Origin: an uncultured Gemmatimonadaceae bacterium
GTDB lineage: Bacteria > Gemmatimonadota > Gemmatimonadetes > Gemmatimonadales > Gemmatimonadaceae
DNA length: 64,000 nt
Direction: 5' to 3'
Assembly (NCBI GenBank): GCA_963817955.1
Contig: CAWFQK010000004.1
Location: forward strand, 1,536,001-1,600,000
Shown: positions 5,741-51,784 of the stretch, in pieces
Layout of the letters: the number at the start of each line of letters is the position of its first letter
How positions within the stretch are numbered: position 1 is the stretch's first letter
The notes under the pieces: generated by a model
Told to the model about the DNA's origin: nothing
The model's database searches: none
The model's input: the letters and a program-made list of their open reading frames with translations, nothing else
Position numbers and translations under genes: made by a program

Positions 5741-5828
5741 GTGGCCTCCCGGCCGATGGGGCGCCGAAATGGACCTGCACCCCGACGGGCGCCCGATGCG
5801 CCGGGGTCGAAAAATGAGAGCAACCGCC

Positions 5829-6835
5829 TCGAGCGGTTGCGGTGTGGTCTTGGGGAGTTGCGCTGTGGTCTTGAGGAGTTGCGATATCGTCTCGGAGAGC
5901 TGGGGTGTCGCCTCAGCAAGTTGCGCTGTCATCTCGGAGAGTCGGGGTGTCGCCTCAGCGAGTTGGGGTGTCGCCTCAGCGAGTTGGAGTGGCGTCTCGG
6001 AGCGTTGGAGTGCCGTCTCGCCGAGTTGGAGTCCCATGTCGACGCGTCAGGGTTCCATCTCAACGCGTTGGGATCCCGTCTCAACGCGTTGGAGTGCCAT
6101 CGCAAGGCGTTCCGATTGCGTCTCGATGAGTTAGGATTCCAGCTCGACGCGCTGGGGTGCCGCCTCTGCGAGTTGGAGTGCCGTCTCGCCGCGCTCAGCT
6201 TGTGCCTTGGCGCGTTGGAGTGCTCTCTCGCCGCACTCCGATTGTGTCTTGGGGAGTTGGAGTGCCGTCTCGATGCGTTGCGATCTCAGCTCGAGGCGCT
6301 CCGATTGCATCTCGGCAGCGGGCACTGCCGTCTCTGCACGGGCGGGTGTCGTCTCGCGGCGATGCGATGCCTGCTCTGCGCGCGAGGATCCTGGCTCAAC
6401 CCGCAGGGATCCTCGCTCGCCACGTTGCGATTCCGTCTACATCCGCAACGATCCTTGCTCGGTCCGTTGGGATTCCGTCTCGGCTCGCAACGATCCTTGC
6501 TCGGCCCGTTGGGATTCCGTCTCGGCTCGCAACGATCCTTGCTCGATCCGTTGCGATCCTATCTGGGCACGCGACGATCCCTGCTTGGCGCGTTGCAATA
6601 CCATCTCGCGGCATTGCGATGCTCGCTCGGCCCGATCGAATTCCATCTCGGCACGATCGAATTCCATCTCGGCACGATCGAATCCCGTCTCGGCCCGATC
6701 GAATTCCATCTCGACACGATCGATCCCGTCTCGGCCCCTTCGCATTCGATCATGCCACGATCGATCCCGTCTCGATCCATTCGCATTCGATGCGTGGCAC
6801 GATCGATCCCGTCTCGCCGCCCGATCGTCCCGCGA
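5829..6835. repeat. Degenerate 21-bp tandem array (~43 in-register units, then decay)
   Basis: Units such as TCAGCGAGTTGGGGTGTCGCC and TCGGCACGATCGAATTCCATC; register unbroken from 5829 to 6711 (42x21). Confidence 0.9.
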
Positions 6836-16978: not shown

Positions 16979-17036
16979 ACCGCGAACATACGACGAGGGG
17001 GAGGGAGAGCGGTAGAGCGCGACCCGACGTTAACGC

Positions 17037-17154
17037 GGATTGGGCTCCGGGCTCTATTCTGGCTGGATGTCGCTGGCTGCTCCGTCGCGGTCGGCCCACC
17101 GGTCGGCGAGTTTCGAGTTTCCAGTTGTGCGTTGTGCGTTGTGAGTGTTAACGG
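17037..17154 (-). repeat. Dispersed repeat copy 1; left arm of 118-bp inverted repeat around the four-helix-bundle gene
   Basis: Reverse complement of 17624-17741 with few mismatches; core 17061-17146. Confidence 0.95.
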
Positions 17155-17525
17155 GCTGGGGTCTCACCGGTGGTGCTCAGCACCTTGTTCCGCAGACCGC
17201 AGAGCATTCGGCGCGTCTCGACTGTCATTGCGCCAAGGGCGCGCCAGTCACGTTCCTGCAGCACGTCGTACCGGTAGGCCAGCTCCAGTTCGCCCTCGAG
17301 CTCCATCGCGGACTTCACGGACATTTCCAGAAAGCGCGCGAGTTCTTTCTGCGTGCTCGCGCCGCAACCCTCGACGATGTTATTCCCCACCGATTCGGCC
17401 GCCGAGACCAGCTGCGCTTTCAGTTCCGAATAGCCCTGCTTTGGAAACCGCGTCGTAGCCCTTCGGACTTCGAGGGCCAGAGCGACAGCCTTGTTCCAAA
17501 CTCTGAGCCGGCGAAAGTCCTGCAT
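17148..17525 (-). CDS. Four helix bundle protein (23S rRNA IVP / Avd-like family)
   Basis: MQDFRRLRVW.KA..LA..FP....L..QL..AA.SV..NI.EG.G......ARFL..S..SA.EL; stop lies inside the left repeat arm. Confidence 0.92.
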   Translation of the reverse strand: MQDFRRLRVWNKAVALALEVRRATTRFPKQGYSELKAQLVSAAESVGNNIVEGCGASTQKELARFLEMSVKSAMELEGELELAYRYDVLQERDWRALGAMTVETRRMLCGLRNKVLSTTGETPAR

Positions 17526-17623
17526 GCGCGAAAGCTGCGCGGCCGCAGCCAAGGGCGCAGCATCGTACCGTTTCCAGCCGGTCCACGCTGTCTCGCCAAG
17601 CTCACCCATCAGACCGGTTTGTA

Positions 17624-17741
17624 CCGTTAACACTCACAACGCACAACTCACAACTGGAAACTCGAACCTCGCCGACCGGTGGGCCGACCGCTACGGAGCA
17701 GCCAGCGACATCCAGCCAGAATAGAGCCCGGAGTCCAATCC
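17624..17741 (+). repeat. Dispersed repeat copy 2; right arm
   Basis: Core 17632-17717 ACTCACAACGCACAACTCACAACTGGAAACTCGAACCTCGCCGACCGGTGGGCCGACCGCTACGGAGCAGCCAGCGACATCCAGCC plus tail AGAATAGAGCCCGGAGTCCAATCC. Confidence 0.95.
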
Positions 17742-17818
17742 ACGCCCTCGCTCTCGCCGCTTCAGTCGGCGCACCTCGAGTGGCCAGTTGCGCGTTGTGC
17801 GCTGTGTGTTGACGTCGA

Positions 17819-23607: not shown

Positions 23608-23840
23608 GGGGGACACGGGACACGCGATGCCTGTCATCCTGAGCGGAGCGAAGGATCTCTGTAGGCCAGCTGGATGTCGCTGGCTGCTCCGTAGCGGTCG
23701 GCCCACCGGTCGGCGAGTTTCGAGTTTCCAGTTGTGAGTTGTGCGTTGTGAGTGTCCCGTGTCTCGTGTCTCGTGTCCCGTGTCTCGTGTCTCGTGTCTC
23801 GTGTCCCGTGTCCCGTGTCCCGTGTCCCACCCCCGTGTCT
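23608..23840 (-). repeat. Dispersed repeat copy 3 with REP-like module and heptamer arrays on both ends
   Basis: GGGACAC x2 right after the stop; TGTCATCCTGAGCGGAGCGAAGGATCT 23632-23658; core 23668-23753; 11 GTGTC(C/T)C units 23752-23828. Confidence 0.95.
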
Positions 23841-23932
23841 CTTCCCTGACCAGCATCATCGGCTTGCCCGATAGGGCATTGGGGTGGTCACCAATAGCGT
23901 CGGTGGCACGCGCCGATCTGGCGCGGCGCTAG

Positions 23933-25432: not shown

Positions 25433-25632
25433 GGATTGGACTCCGGGTCGTCGACCGGCCGCTCCTGGACCACCTTCCAGGTGCACCGCCGGCTGGATGT
25501 CGCTGGCTGCTCCGTCGCGGTCGGCCCACCGGTCGGCGAGTTTCGAGTTTCCAGTTGTGAGTTGTGCGTTGTGAGTGTCCCGTGTCTCGTGTCCCCGTGT
25601 CTCGTGTCTCATGTCTCATGTCTCATGTCTCA
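25433..25632 (-). repeat. Dispersed repeat copy 4
   Basis: Tail GGATTGGACTCCGGG at 25433; core 25491-25576; heptamers drifting GTGTCCC>GTGTCTC>ATGTCTC to 25632. Confidence 0.95.
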
Positions 25633-25734
25633 TAACGCACGGGATTAGTCCTCACACACGCAAGGCTCTTTGCGGACGTCATCGCGTGATGGCCCGTCGC
25701 AATGTAGGGTACTTCCCTTCGGGCGACGGGTCAC

Positions 25735-36509: not shown

Positions 36510-36990
36510 GGGACACGGGACACGGGACACGGGACACGAGACAGGGGACACGAGACAGGGGACACTCACAACGCACAACTCACAACTGGAAACTCGAAAC
36601 TCGCCGACCGGTGGGCCGACGGCTACGGAGCAGCCAGCGACATCCAGCCGGTCACCACCCGGAGTCCAATCCGATCTCCCATGTCCTTCGTTCAGGATGA
36701 CAGGCCTTCGCGCAGGACGACAGGCATCGCGGGTGATCAGAGGTGAGTTGTCAGTTGTCAGTTGTCAGTTGTCAGTTGTCAGTATACGGGTCCTGTGCAC
36801 CAGGGCGCCTGGCTCGCAGGCCACAATCGCCGGTCGGCGAGGTTCGGGTATCCAGTTGTGAGTCATGAGTTGTGAGTTGTAAAAACGCACCACGCATCAC
36901 TCACAACTCACAACTCGAACCTGGCCGCCCGCTACGGAGCAGCCAGCGACATCCCGCCAGAATAGAGCCCGGAGCCCAATCCCCGCTGCA
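36510..36990. repeat. Dispersed repeat cluster: full copy 5 plus REP-like fragments, (AGTTGTC)n and two partial cores
   Basis: Heptamers 36510-36564, core 36564-36649(+), tail to 36672, CAGGATGACAGGC near 36693, AGTTGTC x5 36746-36783, partial (-) 36830-36880, internally deleted (+) 36899-36985. Confidence 0.92.
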
Positions 36991-39686: not shown

Positions 39687-40901
39687 ATGAATAGCAGCAT
39701 TCGACGAGCTGTTGCATTTGGCGCCGTGCTTTCGCTCGCCGCGTGTGCGCATCAGCCCGCCGTTACGCTGGCGGCAACGGTGCCCGCGATGGCGTCCGCG
39801 CCAGGGCCTGCACCTGAGCGCTGGCTCGGGCTCATCGGCGAGTACGATACACCGGCCGGAATGCGGATCGTGCTCGAGGACGGTGGACATCTGCTGTTTG
39901 CCGACACGACGCGGCACAGCATGCCGCTGACCGAGCGCTCCCGCAATGTGTTCGACATCAGCCGCGACGCTTCAGCGGCGCTGCTCGGCGCACCGTCTGA
40001 CGAACTCCAGTTCGTACGCGATGCGTCGGACCGCGCGACAGAGGCCGTTGCAGACGGCGTGCGATTGCTCCGGCGCACCATCGAACCACTACCGGGGACG
40101 AACCAGCTCCGCATCGCACCGCTGCGCCCGGTGGAGGAATTGCGTGCCGAAGCGATCGCCGCATCACCGCCGCAGGAGCCGGGGACATTCCGGCCGTCGG
40201 ATCTCGTCGAGCTCACGCAACTCGACTCGACGATCAAGCTCGAGATCCGCTACGCAACCACCAACAACTTCCTCGGCACCCGCTTCTACGATCAGGCGCG
40301 CGCCTTCATGCAGCGTCCGGCGGCTGACGCCGTGGTGCGCGCCAATCAGTGGCTCCGGCCGCTCGGCTACGGCTTACTCGTGCACGATGCGTATCGCCCC
40401 TGGTACGTGACGAAGATGTTCTGGGACGCGACGCCGCCGGAGAAACGCTGGCTCGTCGCCAATCCCGCGCAGGGATCGCGGCACAATCGCGGTGCGGCCG
40501 TCGACCTCACGCTCTACGCGCTCGCGACGGGTCAGCCCGCCGAGATGCCAAGCACATACGACGAGAGCACTGACCGCGCCTACGCGGACTATCCGGGCGG
40601 CACATCGCTACAGCGCTGGCATCGCGCGCTGCTGCGGCGCGCGATGGAAGCGCAGGGGTTCACCGTGAACCCCACCGAATGGTGGCACTTCGATTACCGT
40701 GACTGGCGGAACTATCGTATTGGCAACGTGCCGTTCGAGGGGGTGCGAGACATGGGCGGGGGACACGGGACGCGAGAAACTCACAACGTACAACTCACAA
40801 CTGGCAACTCGAACCTCGCCGACCGGTGGGTCGACCGGTACGGAGCAGCCAGCGACACCCAGCCGGCTCACAGAGATCCTTCGCTTGGCTCAGGAGGATA
40901 G
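39687..40901 (+). CDS. M15 D-Ala-D-Ala dipeptidase (VanX/DdpX-like) lipoprotein with repeat-derived C-terminal extension
   Basis: Lipobox LAAC; IRYAT.NNF, DAYRP, SRHNRG.AVD, EWWHFD; last ~50 aa translate the repeat. Confidence 0.88.
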   Translation: MNSSIRRAVAFGAVLSLAACAHQPAVTLAATVPAMASAPGPAPERWLGLIGEYDTPAGMRIVLEDGGHLLFADTTRHSMPLTERSRNVFDISRDASAALLGAPSDELQFVRDASDRATEAVADGVRLLRRTIEPLPGTNQLRIAPLRPVEELRAEAIAASPPQEPGTFRPSDLVELTQLDSTIKLEIRYATTNNFLGTRFYDQARAFMQRPAADAVVRANQWLRPLGYGLLVHDAYRPWYVTKMFWDATPPEKRWLVANPAQGSRHNRGAAVDLTLYALATGQPAEMPSTYDESTDRAYADYPGGTSLQRWHRALLRRAMEAQGFTVNPTEWWHFDYRDWRNYRIGNVPFEGVRDMGGGHGTRETHNVQLTTGNSNLADRWVDRYGAASDTQPAHRDPSLGSGG

Positions 40902-40958
40902 GCATCGCGGGTACTGTGATCAGTTGTGAGTTGTGAGTTGTGAGTTGTGAGTTGTAAA
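40749..40958 (+). repeat. Dispersed repeat copy 6 with REP-like tail and complementary (GTTGTGA)n
   Basis: Core 40779-40864; AGATCCTTCGCTTGGCTCAGGA near 40874; GTTGTGA x4-5 40923-40955. Confidence 0.93.
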
Positions 40959-41610
40959 AACGGACCCCGGGTGACTGCCCGGCACAATTCTATTTCGCTG
41001 TGAACGTGACGCGACGCAATGTCACCGAACCTTCGCGAGGGTCATTTGGGGCGCCGGATCAATTCCTCCCCTTTCGCTCGGAATTGTCGCATCACGATGC
41101 AGTCTGGCGAGGTGGACGTCTCGGAATGTGGGTGGTTGGTAAGCGGAATGAAGCCACCGCGCCCCGATCCTGGCCCGCCATGGGTGGCCGTTATTCGGCC
41201 GCGGCCAAAGTAACGCTGCCGCGCGCGGTTCTCGAACGTGCCGCGGCCATGATCCGCCATGCCGCGCTATCGATCGGCGTGCCGCGCTATCGATCCGCAT
41301 GCCGCGCGCAGGCCGCAGAACTCCGCAAGATGAAGTCGGCGTACCGCGCGAGCGGCGGCCGTGCCAGTCCAAGTCGGTCGGGTAGGCGCATGGACAACCG
41401 GTGTTGCCGCGCGCGCTGGTCGGATGCCGCCGATTTTTGAGCCGTGCCGCGCTTGGACCCGCACGCACAAACGTCTTCCGCCGGCGCCCCGCGCCGGATG
41501 CGACTACGGCGCGAGTTGCATCCGTCGCGCCGCGATCGGAGGCCAGAAGCCGCGGCGAGAGCACGTTGCGCCGCGCCCGGGAGCCTGACGCCACTGCCGG
41601 GCGGCGCAGC

Positions 41611-41810
41611 GGGGATTGGACTCCGGGCTGGATGTCGCTGGCTACCGATCGCGAGGCGGGGATTGGACTCCGGGCGCTATTCTGGCTGGCTGTCGCTGGC
41701 TGCTCCGTACCGGTCGACCCACCGGTCGGCGAGGTTCGAGTTTCCAGTTGTGCGTTGTGAGTTTCTCGCGTGTCTCGTGTCTAATGTCCCATGTCTCGTG
41801 TCCCGTCCCC
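41611..41810 (-). repeat. Dispersed repeat copy 7 with duplicated tail
   Basis: Core 41684-41762 (one heptamer shorter); GGGGATTGGACTCCGGG at 41611 and 41658; heptamers up to the stop at 41811. Confidence 0.93.
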
Positions 41811-48725: not shown

Positions 48726-48933
48726 GACACGGGCGGGGGACACGGGACACGGGACACGGGACACGGGACACGGGACACGGGACACGGGACACGGGACACT
48801 CACAACGCATAACTCACAACTGGACACTCGAACCTCGCCGACCGGTGGGCCGATCGCTACGGAGCAGCCAGCGACATCCAGCCGGTCGATACCCGGAGTC
48901 CAGACCGCGCTGCGCCGGCCCGCGAGAGTGGCT
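48726..48933 (+). repeat. Dispersed repeat copy 8
   Basis: 9 perfect GGGACAC units 48737-48799; core 48798-48883; tail CCCGGAGTCCAGA. Confidence 0.95.
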
Positions 48934-48943
48934 CCTTACCGCG

Positions 48944-49327
48944 TCAGCAGGGTCCGCCCGTGCAGGCGAAATAGGCCTCAACGCAGCGCATGAACACCAA
49001 CGGGTACCATGCGGCGCACAACGGCGGCGTTTCCGCGGCAGCTTCCGCAGACACGGCCTCGGCAAGCGAGGGAGCCCGGCCGTCCAGGCCCGCGAAGACC
49101 GCCTTCAATGCGATCACGCAACGTTCCGGCATCTCCTCTCGCTGGCGGAACTCGCACGCAAACGTTGTCGCAGATGCCATCAACTCCGCCTCTGCCTCCA
49201 CTGACCGGTGCTCGCGCGCCGAACGGAGTGCTCGCACCAAACGCCCGGTTCCGCTGCGTTCCAGGGCGGTGGGGGGCACCAGGTGCGAACTGGCCAAAGC
49301 GAATTGGCAGGAGGGAGCGAGCATCAT
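48944..49327 (-). CDS. Small helical hypothetical protein
   Basis: PER..IALK and C-terminal CVEAYF pattern; start uncertain. Confidence 0.55.
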   Translation of the reverse strand: MMLAPSCQFALASSHLVPPTALERSGTGRLVRALRSAREHRSVEAEAELMASATTFACEFRQREEMPERCVIALKAVFAGLDGRAPSLAEAVSAEAAAETPPLCAAWYPLVFMRCVEAYFACTGGPC

Positions 49328-49453
49328 GCCAAACACCATAGGCTATAGCGTAAATCCGCGAAGCGGGTCGTCCCCCCCGGCCATGTCAGAGAAAAAGCGA
49401 CAGGCAATGCTCACATTTCCGTGAACCGTTGACCGTTACATGGTGCGGCGTAT

Positions 49454-49630
49454 TCTGGACTCCGGGTTTTGACCGGCTGGGTGTCGCTGGCTGCTCCGTA
49501 GCGGTCGGCCCACCGGTCGGCGAGGTTCGAGTGTCCAGTTGTGAGTTGTGCGTTGTGAGTTTCTCGTGTCTCTGTCCTGTCTTTTCGTGTCTCGTGTCCC
49601 GTGTCCCGTGTCCCGTGTCCCGTGTCCCAC
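49454..49630 (-). repeat. Dispersed repeat copy 9
   Basis: Tail TCTGGACTCCGGG; core 49475-49560; heptamers to 49628, 3 nt from the stop at 49632. Confidence 0.95.
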
Positions 49631-49631
49631 C

Positions 49632-51014
49632 TCAGAACGTGCACCGCGCTCCGCGCTCGGGAACGTTCACGTCGTAGCCGTCGCCGCGAAGGATCTCGGA
49701 AAATGCGTCCTGGGCGCGTGCTTCGCCGTGCACCAGATGCACCGGAAGCTTCCGATTGCTCGATCCGCGGACGAGGCTCAGCCATCGGTGTAGTTCACCG
49801 CGGTCGGCGTGCGCGCTGTAGCCGTTGAGCACCTCCACCCGAGCGCGAAGTGCCACTTCCTCTCCGTACACCTTGATGGTGGGGCGCCGCTCGACGATGC
49901 GCCGCCCGAGGGTGTGCTCGGCTTGAAAACCCACGATGAGGATGGTGTTCTTTGGATTGGAAGCGCCGTTCGCGAGGTGGTGCAGAATGCGGCCGGCCTC
50001 GGCCATGCCGGATGCCGCGATGATGATCATCGGCCCATGACGGTCGTTGAGCGCTTTCGACGCCGACGCGTCGCGCGCGAACTCAAGCCCCTCGAAATCG
50101 AACAAGTCGTCGACCGTGGTCACGAGCTCTTCGCGGCGATCGTACGCGTCGGGATTCATCGCGAATACCGCCGTTGCAGCGATCGCCAGCGGGCTATCGA
50201 CGACGATGGGAATGGCCGGGATAGCCTTCGCGCGGGTGAGCCGGTGCAAGTCGTACAGCAGCTCCTGCGTCCGGCCAACGGCGAACGCGGGGATCAGCAC
50301 ACGACCGCCAGCCGCCGCGGTCTCGCGAATGATGCGGCCGAGTTGGTCAGGAAGGTCGGCCACAGACGCATGATCGCGGTCGCCATACGTCGACTCCATG
50401 ATGACGACGTCGGCATCCTGCGGCGGGCGCGGATCGCGGATGATCGGCAGCCCCCATCGTCCGATGTCACCAGAATACACGAGTCTGCGGCTGACGCCAT
50501 TCTCGGTGCAATCGAGCACAATCGACGCAGACCCAAGAATGTGTCCCGCCTCGACGAAGGTGGCGCGGATGCCCGGCGCGACATCGAAGGGCTGGTCATA
50601 CGGAATGCCGGTCATGCGTTTCATCAAACGCGTCACGTCATCCTGATCATATAACGGACCGACGAACGAGCGTTTGCGGCGCGCCAGGTACTCCGCGTCC
50701 TTCTCCTGGATGTGCGCGGAGTCAGCGAGCATGATGGCACACAGGTCGCGCGTGGGCGGCGTTGCGTACACGGGACGTTCGAATCCGTATCGTGCGAGCA
50801 ACGGCAACCGGCCGGAGTGATCGATGTGCGCGTGCGACAGCAACACCGCGTTCACCTCGTTCGCCCGGAAGGGGATCTCCAGGTTGCGCGCATTGGACTC
50901 GGCGCGCCGCCCCTGATACATCCCGAAATCGAGTGCGACCGTCGAACTGCCGACGTGGATGAGATGGCACGAGCCGGTGACTTCGCGCGCCGCGCCTAGA
51001 AAGGTGATGTCCAT
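49632..51014 (-). CDS. MBL-fold beta-CASP metallo-hydrolase (putative RNase)
   Basis: GAAREVTGS, SHAHIDH, AGHILGS, ESTYG, FAVGRTQE, SAHAD, LVHGE. Confidence 0.93.
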   Translation of the reverse strand: MDITFLGAAREVTGSCHLIHVGSSTVALDFGMYQGRRAESNARNLEIPFRANEVNAVLLSHAHIDHSGRLPLLARYGFERPVYATPPTRDLCAIMLADSAHIQEKDAEYLARRKRSFVGPLYDQDDVTRLMKRMTGIPYDQPFDVAPGIRATFVEAGHILGSASIVLDCTENGVSRRLVYSGDIGRWGLPIIRDPRPPQDADVVIMESTYGDRDHASVADLPDQLGRIIRETAAAGGRVLIPAFAVGRTQELLYDLHRLTRAKAIPAIPIVVDSPLAIAATAVFAMNPDAYDRREELVTTVDDLFDFEGLEFARDASASKALNDRHGPMIIIAASGMAEAGRILHHLANGASNPKNTILIVGFQAEHTLGRRIVERRPTIKVYGEEVALRARVEVLNGYSAHADRGELHRWLSLVRGSSNRKLPVHLVHGEARAQDAFSEILRGDGYDVNVPERGARCTF

Positions 51015-51030
51015 GGCTCAGAATGATAAA

Positions 51031-51094
51031 CGTGTCCCGTGTCCCGTGTCCCGTGTCTCGTGTCTCGTGTCTCATGTCCCGTGTCTCATGTCCC
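51031..51094. repeat. Heptamer array overlapping the AI-2E stop codon
   Basis: About 9 (G/A)TGTC(C/T)C units; the TGA at 51086-51088 lies within the array. Confidence 0.9.
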
Positions 51095-51784
51095 ACCATA
51101 CTCTTCTCGAAACGCGCGCAGCAGCTCGAACAGGTACGCGATGGCCAGCGGTCCGAGGAGGAGGCCCACCAGTCCGAAGTAGCGAAGGCCGGCAAAGGCA
51201 CCGACGAGCGTGATCATCGGGTGGATGTTCGAGACGCGCTTGTACACGAGTGGCAACAGGATCACGTTGTCGATGTTGCTCGCGATGACACCTCCGATCA
51301 CCGCCAGTACCGCCGCCGCGCCGTAGCGCCCCTGTCCGAGCAGCACCATCACGGCCGGCAGCCACACCAGGGCGCTTCCGAGGAACGAGAACAACTGCGC
51401 CGACAACCATGAGATGAGCATCCCGCTCGCTTTCGCGAGCTCCGCGCCCACCTGGACATCGCCGATGTGCAACTCGCCGACGCGCGCAAACACGGCGCTG
51501 TCCTGCACGCTACGCAGTGCATCCGGGGCTTGGCCGACGACCAGCACGATCAGCCAGGCGAGCGGCAGCGCGACGATGATGAGCGCCGCCACGAGCGTGA
51601 TTGAAGCCGCAATCCCCGGCCTGAGGATGCGCCCGAGCCACCGATATGGCTTCACGAGGATCACGTAGAGCACCCCCACGCCAAGCAATCCGCTCACGAA
51701 CGGCGTCAGGGTCAGTAGGATCGCCCCACCAAGAACCAGAATGAGCAAGCCGGCACGGTCGCGCGGTGTCTGCAGGAGTGTCAT
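51086..51784 (-). pseudogene. AI-2E family transporter with probable in-frame internal deletion
   Basis: 232 aa; N-terminal AI-2E part joins directly to GSALVWLP..DN..P..IHP..G..FG..G..LGP. Confidence 0.7.

Follow-up and report, generated by a model that had tools for sequence, protein, structure and literature searches.

The locus described here raises the question of why a gene for a small four-helix-bundle (4HB) protein should lie outside rRNA, enclosed by two inverted copies of a repeat that recurs throughout the genome. It is located in a 64,000-nucleotide stretch of DNA from an uncultured Gemmatimonadaceae bacterium (the window). The protein family concerned, PF05635/TIGR02436, is very large and has solved structures; we know of no function for it outside DGRs. 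The 23S rRNA intervening sequences (IVSs) in which some of its members occur, and the tandem-heptamer or REP-like hairpin repeats, have to our knowledge gone unexplained for decades. The window gene looks like the gene-carrying member of an undescribed family of spreading DNA hairpins.

The ORF listing of the window places the gene in a minus-strand frame at 17148-17633, within which the family-typical start codon delimits the intact gene given in Table 1. The encoded protein scores 86.9 bits against PF05635 (cut-off 33.8) and 84.3 bits against TIGR02436 (cut-off 24), and its AlphaFold2 model consists of four helices with a pLDDT of 95.4. Using Foldseek, the model was aligned with XCC0516 (2GSC; TM 0.83/0.88, rmsd 1.0), BT_0352 (2RLD; TM 0.76-0.86) and Avd (4DWL and 8UB7; TM 0.74-0.85, at only 7% identity), and the protein also matches 2GSC in sequence (E 6e-8). 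The first-pass annotation had assigned the gene to this family and proposed an Avd-like fold, and both assignments held. The 2GSC structure contains five chains, and XCC0516 is a homopentamer according to the available text of the Coxiella IVS paper (PMC4990558). By homology to XCC0516 and Avd, the window protein is predicted to be a ring-forming, nucleic-acid-associated small protein. It has no known catalytic domain, and the cassette contains no transposase domain.

Table 1. Positions in the window of the 4HB cassette and of the family-A repeat copies discussed in the text.
Feature	Position	Strand	Description
4HB gene (PF05635/TIGR02436)	17148..17525	-	125 aa from family-typical ATG at 17525; intact
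Left arm	17034..17154	+	full family-A unit, positions 1-121; outer non-repetitive core, then period-7 units and GTTAAC facing the gene; holds the stop codon
Right arm	17624..17744	-	inverted full family-A unit, 96% complementary to left arm
Leader	17526..17623	-	98 nt between right arm and start codon
Third family-A copy, partial	17765..17814	+	short, more diverged; heptamer-bearing unit positions 69-120, 79%; adjoins the stop of the glycosyltransferase gene upstream
Gene-less family-A unit	23669..23755	+	GTGTCCC-type heptamer array after the unit
Gene-less family-A unit	25491..25578	+	heptamer array after the unit
Gene-less family-A composite	36510..36986	.	unit, spacer, GTTGTCA heptamers, 'GTATAC...' module, short arm, apex, long arm; long copies at 36562 and 36884, short copy at 36830-36877
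Outward-facing family-A pair	40779..41763	.	40779-40864 minus, 41657-41763 plus; flanks non-coding element X of ~790 nt
Outward-facing family-A pair	48796..49560	.	48796-48909 minus, 49456-49560 plus; 546-nt segment between them, unrelated to X

The two arms are separated by 469 nt. The first-pass annotation had described near-perfect inverted arms of 118 nt at 17037-17741; their inversion and near-perfect pairing stood, but each arm measures 121 nt. Period-7 tracts were located by TRF at the gene-facing ends of both arms (~17107-17143 and ~17632-17655), and the TAA stop codon of the gene (17148-17150) forms part of GTTAAC, a hexamer present at the inner end of each arm. Heptamer ends facing the gene and a stop codon inside one arm had both been noted in the annotation, which had also proposed an IVS-like long stem carrying the ORF in its loop. 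The gene-sense RNA is indeed predicted to fold as one stem of ~125 bp; its minimum free energy is -468.5 kcal/mol, whereas 20 shuffled sequences gave -314.6 +/- 5.2 (z -29.65).

Each arm corresponds to one unit (113-121 nt) of a dispersed repeat family, family A. A blastn search with the arm returned 165 HSPs (97 long, 52 short and 16 other) at 102 loci across the genome, bearing out the annotation's view of the gene as the gene-bearing member of a dispersed repeat family. That the core recurs without the gene was also correct; where the annotation counted seven recurrences, blastn with the arm gives eight further long copies in the window, as well as two short ones (Table 1). A 36-nt core pattern matched four times in the window and not once in 100 shuffles. 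Most family-A loci are gene-less single units or stereotyped hairpins. The dispersed members include single units besides inverted pairs, and the copies occur in both orientations and in many architectures. The gene-less composite in Table 1 has the same architecture as the context of a second gene-bearing copy, on contig C1, but its apex is empty. Element X (~750-790 nt), flanked by one of the outward-facing pairs, has three further copies in the genome; substitutions among the four are spread evenly over the three column phases (30/31/31), and X is therefore taken as non-coding. The most abundant heptamer arrays of the genome (GGGACAC type, 175 arrays) flank none of its five 4HB genes.

Enclosure by repeats is not peculiar to this locus: long inverted repeats surround four of the five PF05635 genes of this genome, with arms of 136 nt (93%), 121 nt (96%), 48 nt (92%) and 167 nt (85%), and the fifth has no arms. 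As controls from the same genome, 300 random windows included no enclosed case and 300 small ORFs included two, one of them the C1 paralogue itself. The control ORFs were picked with a crude GC3-based gene caller that covers 50-72% of contigs and was used for that alone. The repeats are thus strongly enriched around the paralogues, as the reading in the first-pass annotation implies, and chance flanking by two independent repeat insertions is negligible at ~100 loci in 4.5 Mb. The arms of the enclosed paralogues belong to three different dispersed families (blastn HSPs: A, ~160; B, 25-28; C, 59-62), and proteins and arms are paired: the 94%-identical proteins share family A, and proteins with at most 51% identity have other arm families. 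Between the two family-A gene copies (window and C1) there are 8 synonymous and 6 non-synonymous differences (pN/pS 0.26), and the window gene is, judged against this 94%-identical C1 paralogue, under purifying selection. A gene-less family-C hairpin (C1:252089-252258) retains a frameshifted remnant of the family-C 4HB gene, 167 nt at 86%.

The family-A arm was not found in 24 of 25 congeners searched, the remaining one having a marginal 24-nt match. In three congeners the same two flanking genes lie 73-157 nt apart with neither gene nor arms between them, an empty site of the kind that the first-pass annotation had proposed to look for in relatives; their intergenic DNA is too diverged to align, so the insertion junctions stay imprecise. 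The cassette is, on these sequence comparisons, a lineage-specific gain. No clear target-site duplication was established for it, and the GTTAAC hexamers flanking it are part of the arm complementarity and are absent on one side of the C1 copy. Only 6-10% of the sampled words were present in four runs of DNA metagenome sequencing, all of them from a single study, and the contigs were mostly of read length. One contig, from run X3, contained the lone 'opposite strands' joint, 17019/17744; no excision was seen at this joint, for which the left arm, read on the opposite strand and with the variants of the right arm, accounts.

The genes on either side of the cassette are aminotransferase-like and glycosyltransferase-like, and both are co-directional with the 4HB gene. 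No sigma-70-like promoter was found between 16800 and 18000 in a consensus scan, although the consensus may not suit the host phylum. This arrangement, together with the extreme stability of the predicted stem, would fit an RNA-level element that is now immobile: a stem-loop in a read-through transcript that either undergoes processing as rRNA IVSs do or serves as an insulator or stabiliser for the two genes flanking it, with copies conserved for their RNA roles. A precedent exists in the Coxiella IVS, which is excised by RNase III according to the available text of PMC4990558. However, none of the RNase III models PF14622, PF00636 and TIGR02191 had a match in this genome (94% complete), and PF00636 had none in any of the 31 genomes of the order (this one and 30 relatives), so that the RNase III processing raised in the first-pass annotation found no enzyme here. 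That family A was not found in 24 of 25 congeners points to a recent gain rather than a conserved regulator, the copies lie in both orientations and in many architectures, and no part of the window matched Rfam at the gathering thresholds, rRNA included, which speaks against a known RNA family. We consider a purely RNA-level role improbable.

Enclosed PF05635 genes are also found beyond this genome. In the order, 22 of 30 PF05635 loci are enclosed, and 21 of 29 outside this genome, counts that include syntenic, non-independent sets; the relatives' arms are dispersed in their own genomes in all four cases tested (51, 24, 46 and 22 matches). Enclosure was seen at 42 of the 74 loci testable across phyla, compared to 2 of 140 shifted controls, so the enclosed layout is frequent but not universal with the method used. 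The best period of the arms is 7, 14 or 21 in 45 of 47 cases, and most of them are short arrays (16-50 nt) directly next to the gene. Gene and arms have been kept together at orthologous loci across species (L022/L023 and L004/L012/L016), and one orthologue group, syntenic in at least five congeners, has no arms. The GTTGTG-type arm motif was also compared with protein similarity: the combination of at least two GTTGTG upstream and at least two CACAAC downstream occurs at 4 of 101 loci, namely the closest homologue, L133 (genome G070, 62% identity), and others with 31-39% identity.

These data bear on whether the arms belong to the cassette or are its target. Palindromic repeats might have been spread by another enzyme and the 4HB cassette might insert at the apex of the hairpin, a preference that the IVSs in rRNA helices would share. 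The position of the C1 copy, after '...AAAACGC', coincides exactly with the apex of a stereotyped composite, the modules and apex of which are shared by 22 of 25 gene-less hairpins, and the window and C1 copies have identical cassette boundaries but different left arms (a full unit in one, a short arm and other modules in the other). The same apex, or the middle of an arm pair, also accommodates unrelated sequences: two family-A composites have a ~750-nt non-coding element at the position of the C1 cassette, and gene-less family-B units have a conserved centre of ~100 nt unrelated to the 4HB gene. This suggests that arms can spread with other contents. An IS481-family element likewise occurs at one fixed position of the family-A composite in four of four copies. 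On the other hand, the arms across phyla, scored at the locus, are mostly the short gene-abutting arrays described above, and among 299 other small ORFs a single one is enclosed, so a preference for the apex would have to be special to the 4HB gene. The family-C remnant is a gene-less form that arose from a gene-bearing one, and the orthologous loci named above retain gene and arms across species. Landing at a pre-existing hairpin is, in our judgement, a somewhat unlikely explanation, although one to be taken seriously.

The IS481-family element raises another alternative. Its four copies are ~96% identical, and its frame of 416 aa, scanned over the 391 aa from the first Met, contains HTH_32, rve, rve_3 and LZ_Tnp_IS481. 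The first 36 nt of the leader of the window cassette (17587-17622) match the subterminal repeat at the left end of this element and recur at other family-A loci; in the C1 copy the match comprises 64 nt and a seven-fold 24-mer array. At the other end of the cassette, the last 10-11 nt match the right end of the element, and GTTAAC occurs on either side of the window cassette. The window and C1 cassettes could accordingly be non-autonomous derivatives moved by the IS481-family transposase, with the 4HB gene as mere cargo. Yet the shared boundary begins 6 nt inside the apparent tip of the element (TGTCAG... at the left, TGTGAAG... at the reverse-complemented right), the right-end match is very short, and the element occupies a different position in the composite. 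Moreover, the paralogues p1 and p5, checked in this genome, lack such ends. There is little probability, in our view, that the gene is a passenger of this kind.

Other partner enzymes were also sought. The genome has no match to the Y1 (HUH) transposase profile PF01797, which, the gene itself being PF05635, rules out a RAYT identity. Its sole RVT_1 match (C4:732178-732693) lies ~820 kb from the cassette, next to an IS256-type (Mutator-family) transposase and an SNF2/ResIII helicase. The first-pass annotation had proposed a search for a co-occurring reverse transcriptase; the only one found is distant and in another context, and a DGR or reverse transcriptase partner was rejected.

The closest known counterpart of the cassette is the ORF-bearing 23S rRNA IVS of Coxiella burnetii (helix 45) and Leptospira. 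In the available text of PMC4990558, the Coxiella IVS has inverted repeats, tandem heptamers upstream of an S23p ORF and the ORF in the loop. The same layout of a long inverted-repeat stem, a PF05635/S23p ORF in the loop and heptamers adjoining the ORF is found here. The same text describes ORF-bearing IVSs as sporadic in distribution, with a selfish or mobile origin suggested, and quotes the idea of Ralph and McClelland (1993) that the IVS is mobile and that its ORF serves mobility. It also argues that the Coxiella ORF is decaying and not expressed, unlike the window ORF, which is intact and apparently under selection. The window cassette further differs in lying between protein-coding genes rather than in 23S rRNA (helix 9, 25 or 45), in having 121-nt arms that are units of a ~100-locus family with many gene-less members, and in belonging to a lineage where RNase III was not found. 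Full-text searches of openly available papers turned up no account of PF05635 genes with inverted arrays or dispersed repeats around them outside rRNA. The rRNA case was the only one found, in keeping with the first-pass annotation's description of the system as undescribed.

Three further systems offer partial parallels. In REPIN-RAYT systems, the gene for a REP-associated tyrosine transposase has its own REP sequences on either side. As in those systems, a single-copy or low-copy gene is flanked here by inverted copies of a dispersed hairpin-forming repeat, the repeat families are specific to paralogues and some loci keep their arms across species; unlike in those systems, the protein is a 125-aa four-helix bundle without known catalytic residues, not a Y1/HUH transposase, and the repeats consist of tandem short units. 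The cassette also resembles MITEs and their autonomous transposons, in that many short gene-less copies share termini with few gene-bearing ones, an internal-deletion derivative exists and the expansion is confined to one lineage. It differs from them in that the gene-bearing copy has no recognisable transposase, there is no clear target-site duplication and single units are dispersed as well. With DGR Avd the window protein has its fold in common, but no reverse transcriptase adjoins the window gene.

We give an even chance to the reading that the locus is a hairpin cassette of the IVS type located outside rRNA, and that the gene-less members of its family depend on the protein. In this lineage alone, the cassette would have inserted whole, as DNA, between two host genes that run in the same direction. 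Gene-bearing copies would supply the protein and gene-less copies would be non-autonomous members, comparable to REPINs with their RAYT or MITEs with their full transposon. The ring-forming protein, as predicted from XCC0516 and Avd, may bind the tracts of tandem units where the arms face the gene, with a hairpin or single-stranded nucleic acid as the bound form, and would be needed for the upkeep or copying of the hairpins. Cutting and joining would be performed by enzymes of the host or of other mobile elements. The first-pass annotation had likewise proposed that the protein binds the repeat or helps it to spread; binding by the protein, its action in trans and the mechanism of copying are steps that we infer.

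A broader proposal, which we put forward tentatively as possible rather than probable, is that PF05635 proteins are the dedicated partners of an unrecognised class of hairpin repeats built of tandem short units, usually heptamers, as RAYTs are for REPINs. Each paralogue would recognise the array in the arms around it, with one subunit of the ring for every unit, and would thereby direct the copying of its own cassette and gene-less hairpins or guard them against loss. The 23S rRNA IVS would then be a special case that landed in an rRNA helix.

If this is true, a genome with three gene/repeat pairs and ~100 gene-less family-A loci would lend itself naturally to a demonstration of the partnership between PF05635 proteins and repeats. 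The ~100 family-A loci appear to have been gained since the split from 24 of the 25 sampled congeners. For the view that IVS-like elements are processed as RNA, the apparent absence of RNase III from the order is an added complication. Whether the protein binds its own arms, and whether the gene-less hairpins need it, become directly testable questions, and the genome itself provides the material: arms both cognate and non-cognate, a derivative with an internal deletion and a candidate for the helper transposase. Three paralogues, each in its own dispersed repeat family, would tie together the function of PF05635, the rRNA IVSs and the heptamer or REP-like hairpins.

The locus had been described in the first-pass annotation as a four-helix-bundle gene enclosed by inverted arms that are themselves a dispersed repeat. 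Our analysis bears this out with small corrections: two arms of 121 nt, separated by 469 nt, enclose p2, the window copy among the five PF05635 four-helix-bundle (4HB) genes (p1 to p5) of the source genome. The p2 protein matches PF05635 with 86.9 bits (cut-off 33.8) and TIGR02436 with 84.3 bits (cut-off 24). Counted from the ATG at 17525, the start typical of the family (MQDFRRL...), the protein has 125 aa; its stop codon (17148-17150) lies within the left arm, inside a GTTAAC that recurs at the inner end of each arm. A 7-nt periodicity marks the third of each arm nearest the gene. An AlphaFold2 model of the protein has four helices (pLDDT 95.4) and superposes on XCC0516 (2GSC; TM 0.83/0.88) and on BT_0352 (2RLD); the DGR protein Avd (4DWL, 8UB7) is more distant (TM 0.74-0.85, 7% identity). 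The gene-sense RNA is predicted to fold into a single stem of ~125 bp (-468.5 kcal/mol versus -314.6 +/- 5.2 for shuffles, z -29.65), in agreement with the proposal of a long stem with the ORF in its loop, as in intervening sequences (IVSs) of 23S rRNA. No sigma-70-like promoter was found at the locus. Upstream of the gene lies a glycosyltransferase-like gene and downstream of it an aminotransferase-like gene; all three are encoded on the minus strand.

The suggested association of 4HB paralogues with repeats holds genome-wide. Long inverted repeats surround four of the five PF05635 genes, compared with 0/300 random windows and 2/300 small ORFs under the same method (one of these two being p3). 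The repeat-enclosed layout is thus the rule for PF05635 genes in this genome. The arms of p2 and p3 belong to one dispersed repeat, family A, while those of p1 and p5 belong to two others, family B (25-28 HSPs) and family C (59-62 HSPs, with tandem units of 17, 11 and 10 nt), respectively. The p2 and p3 proteins share 94% identity, and a 590-nt alignment of their elements has 93.7% identity; the two genes differ by 8 synonymous and 6 non-synonymous changes (pN/pS 0.26); p1 and p5 share 51% and 37% protein identity with p2.

Features of the p2 locus, its paralogues and associated elements (C1, C2, C4, C5 and C9 are contigs of the source genome; the window is C4:1536001-1600000, and positions without a contig refer to it)
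Feature	Position	Strand	Description
p2 left arm	17034-17154		121 nt, 96% complementary to right arm
p2 right arm	17624-17744		121 nt, 96% complementary to left arm
p2 ORF	17148-17633	minus	between the arms
p1	C4:1054669		enclosing inverted repeat 136 nt, 93%
p2			enclosing inverted repeat 121 nt, 96%
p3	C1:472315		enclosing inverted repeat 48 nt, 92%, family-A arms
p4	C2:824631		no enclosing inverted repeat
p5	C4:1616850		enclosing inverted repeat 167 nt, 85%
IS481-family element, four copies	C4:905150-907100; C5:39300-41100; C9:169520-171350; C4:242550-244250		outside the window
~750 nt element, four copies	40865-41656; C1:329706-330536; C2:333664-334569; C2:811289-812171		in window and elsewhere

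A blastn search of the 4.53-Mb genome with the p2 arm returned 165 HSPs at 102 loci, comprising 97 long copies (arm positions ~1-113), 52 short copies (~66-113, the heptamer-bearing part) and 16 others. The recurrence of the core in the window without the gene was confirmed, with the count rising from seven to eight further long copies. Family A occurs as single units, often followed by GTGTCCC-type heptamers, as hairpins in which a short and a long arm meet at their heptamer ends (loops of 0-14 nt), and as larger composites. Of the 25 hairpins inspected, 22 share their modules and their apex, or inner hairpin tip ('...TTTTTAAAAACGC...'), and so propagate as units of ~260 nt. Of the 25 other species of the genus, 24 gave no match to the arm and one a marginal 24-nt match; family A therefore expanded in this lineage only.

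Arrays of the GGGACAC/GTGTCCC type are the commonest period-7 repeat of the genome (175 of 613 period-7 TRF arrays; in the window, for example, at 23755-23850, 25593-25655, 36510-36560, 49562-49640 and 51028-51104). They are often joined to family-A units, yet flank none of the five 4HB genes. Separately, the window has at 5814-6760 a long run of tandem 21-nt repeats (17-22 copies per repeat family, 60-90% identity) that may encode a 7-residue protein repeat.

One family-C hairpin (C1:251949-252403) retains between its arms a frameshifted 167-nt relic of a p5-like gene (86% identity), direct evidence that gene-bearing hairpins can give rise to gene-less ones. Two other observations point the opposite way. 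The eight family-B gene-less units inspected have a conserved centre of ~100 nt unrelated to the gene, and two family-A composites carry a ~750 nt non-coding element at the apex position held elsewhere by the p3 cassette. Copies of this element are 84-94% identical, with substitutions that have no codon-phase bias, internal 21-22-nt tandem repeats and family-A units as bounds; the window copy had no Rfam match. The arms therefore travel with several kinds of content. Gene-bearing and gene-less members may belong to a single system in which the protein putatively acts on the tracts of the arms, a proposition that we regard as evenly balanced. Its main rival, insertion of the cassette at the apex of hairpins that spread by other means, we consider unlikely. 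The window itself contains a gene-less family-B unit (1901-2155), one of at least eight stereotyped genome copies, with inverted arms ~98 nt apart around the conserved centre.

An IS481-family element is present in four ~96% identical copies, all at one fixed spot of the family-A composite, with GTTGTCA heptamers on one side and a 'GTATAC...' module on the other. Its open frame of 416 aa matches HTH_32, rve, rve_3 and LZ_Tnp_IS481 (in the scanned 391 aa from the first Met). Near its left end is a subterminal repeat of 24-26 nt that also forms the first 36 nt of the p2 cassette leader and is amplified to seven copies at p3; at the other end of the cassette, the final 10-11 nt are similar to the right end of the IS. 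Mobilisation of the cassette by this transposase would account for the shared leader, but the shared boundary starts 6 nt inside the apparent IS tip, so that such movement is possible, not favoured, and in our judgement improbable.

Comparison with congeners recovered an empty site. The aminotransferase orthologue was found in 18 of 25 congeners and adjoins the glycosyltransferase gene in five of the fetched loci; a 4HB match was seen at no relative's locus. In three (G009, G003 and G002) the two genes are ~98, 73 and 157 nt apart, with neither 4HB gene nor arm between them; in G011 and G001 they are separated by a different gene. Divergence of the intergenic DNA prevents exact placement of the insertion junctions. 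The closest homologues of the p2 protein come from other genera (52-62% identity, against 44% at most in congeners), and all seven of their fetched loci have enclosing repeats (E <= 1e-2). The arms of the 62% homologue contain GTTGTGAG (single genome, G070, marked as unpublished).

PF05635 genes occur in 28 of 30 relatives of the order, mostly with 3-13 matches each. Of the 30 top-scoring loci retrieved, 29 of them from relatives, 22 are enclosed by inverted repeats of 22-136 nt (E <= 1e-3). These loci are not independent: some positives are syntenic (L004/L012/L016 and L022/L023) and five of the eight negatives form one syntenic arm-less orthologue group; two of the negatives are located at a contig end. 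Four arms from relatives were searched against their own genomes and each proved to be dispersed (51, 24, 46 and 22 matches); in G005, many of the 51 matches have 100% identity over 65 nt. Across phyla, with one genome per species and the best 80 of 594 confirmed relatives kept, 42 of 74 loci were enclosed versus 2 of 140 control windows (the same loci shifted by 850 nt); the six loci with <250 nt of flank were excluded from this count, and arms were seen in five of them. The best period was 7, 14 or 21 in 45 of 47 cross-phyla arms. One 4HB gene is in synteny across at least six congeners (L001, L006, L008, L014, L018, the arm-less group, and L030), with no enclosing repeat or just one of 22 nt, and may be a settled, arm-less family member.

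In Coxiella, the IVS is excised by RNase III (PMC4990558). The RNase III processing envisaged for the present repeat found no enzyme: PF14622, PF00636 and TIGR02191 had no match in the source genome (94% complete) and PF00636 none in 31 genomes of the order, while the models were positive in 8-9 of 14 control genomes (PF00636 in 8). The order either is without a canonical RNase III or has a very divergent one, and an RNase III-based life cycle in this lineage is not supported as it stands. A purely RNA-level role, for which the predicted stem could speak, is a lesser rival that we find as doubtful as IS481 mobilisation. The sole reverse transcriptase of the genome (RVT_1, within the locus C4:729866-735611) lies between a Mutator/IS256-family transposase and a SNF2/ResIII helicase gene, surroundings that resemble a defence or mobile island more than a DGR.

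On the best-supported reading, p2 is a hairpin cassette of the IVS type, located outside rRNA and acquired as DNA in this lineage, its arms being units of a repeat family that expanded recently and its protein being maintained by selection. ORF-bearing 23S rRNA IVSs have the same parts in a different place, and we know of no gene-less family described for them. REPIN-RAYT systems share the logic of a gene within its own repeats but use a different protein, MITEs are also among the closest known things, and Avd is alike in fold but differs in context. Full-text literature searches turned up no description of the PF05635 layout outside rRNA. To this layout the present genome adds the missing RNase III, the IS481 link, alternative apex cargo, arms each made of a full unit of a 100-locus family, and three gene/family pairs in one genome.
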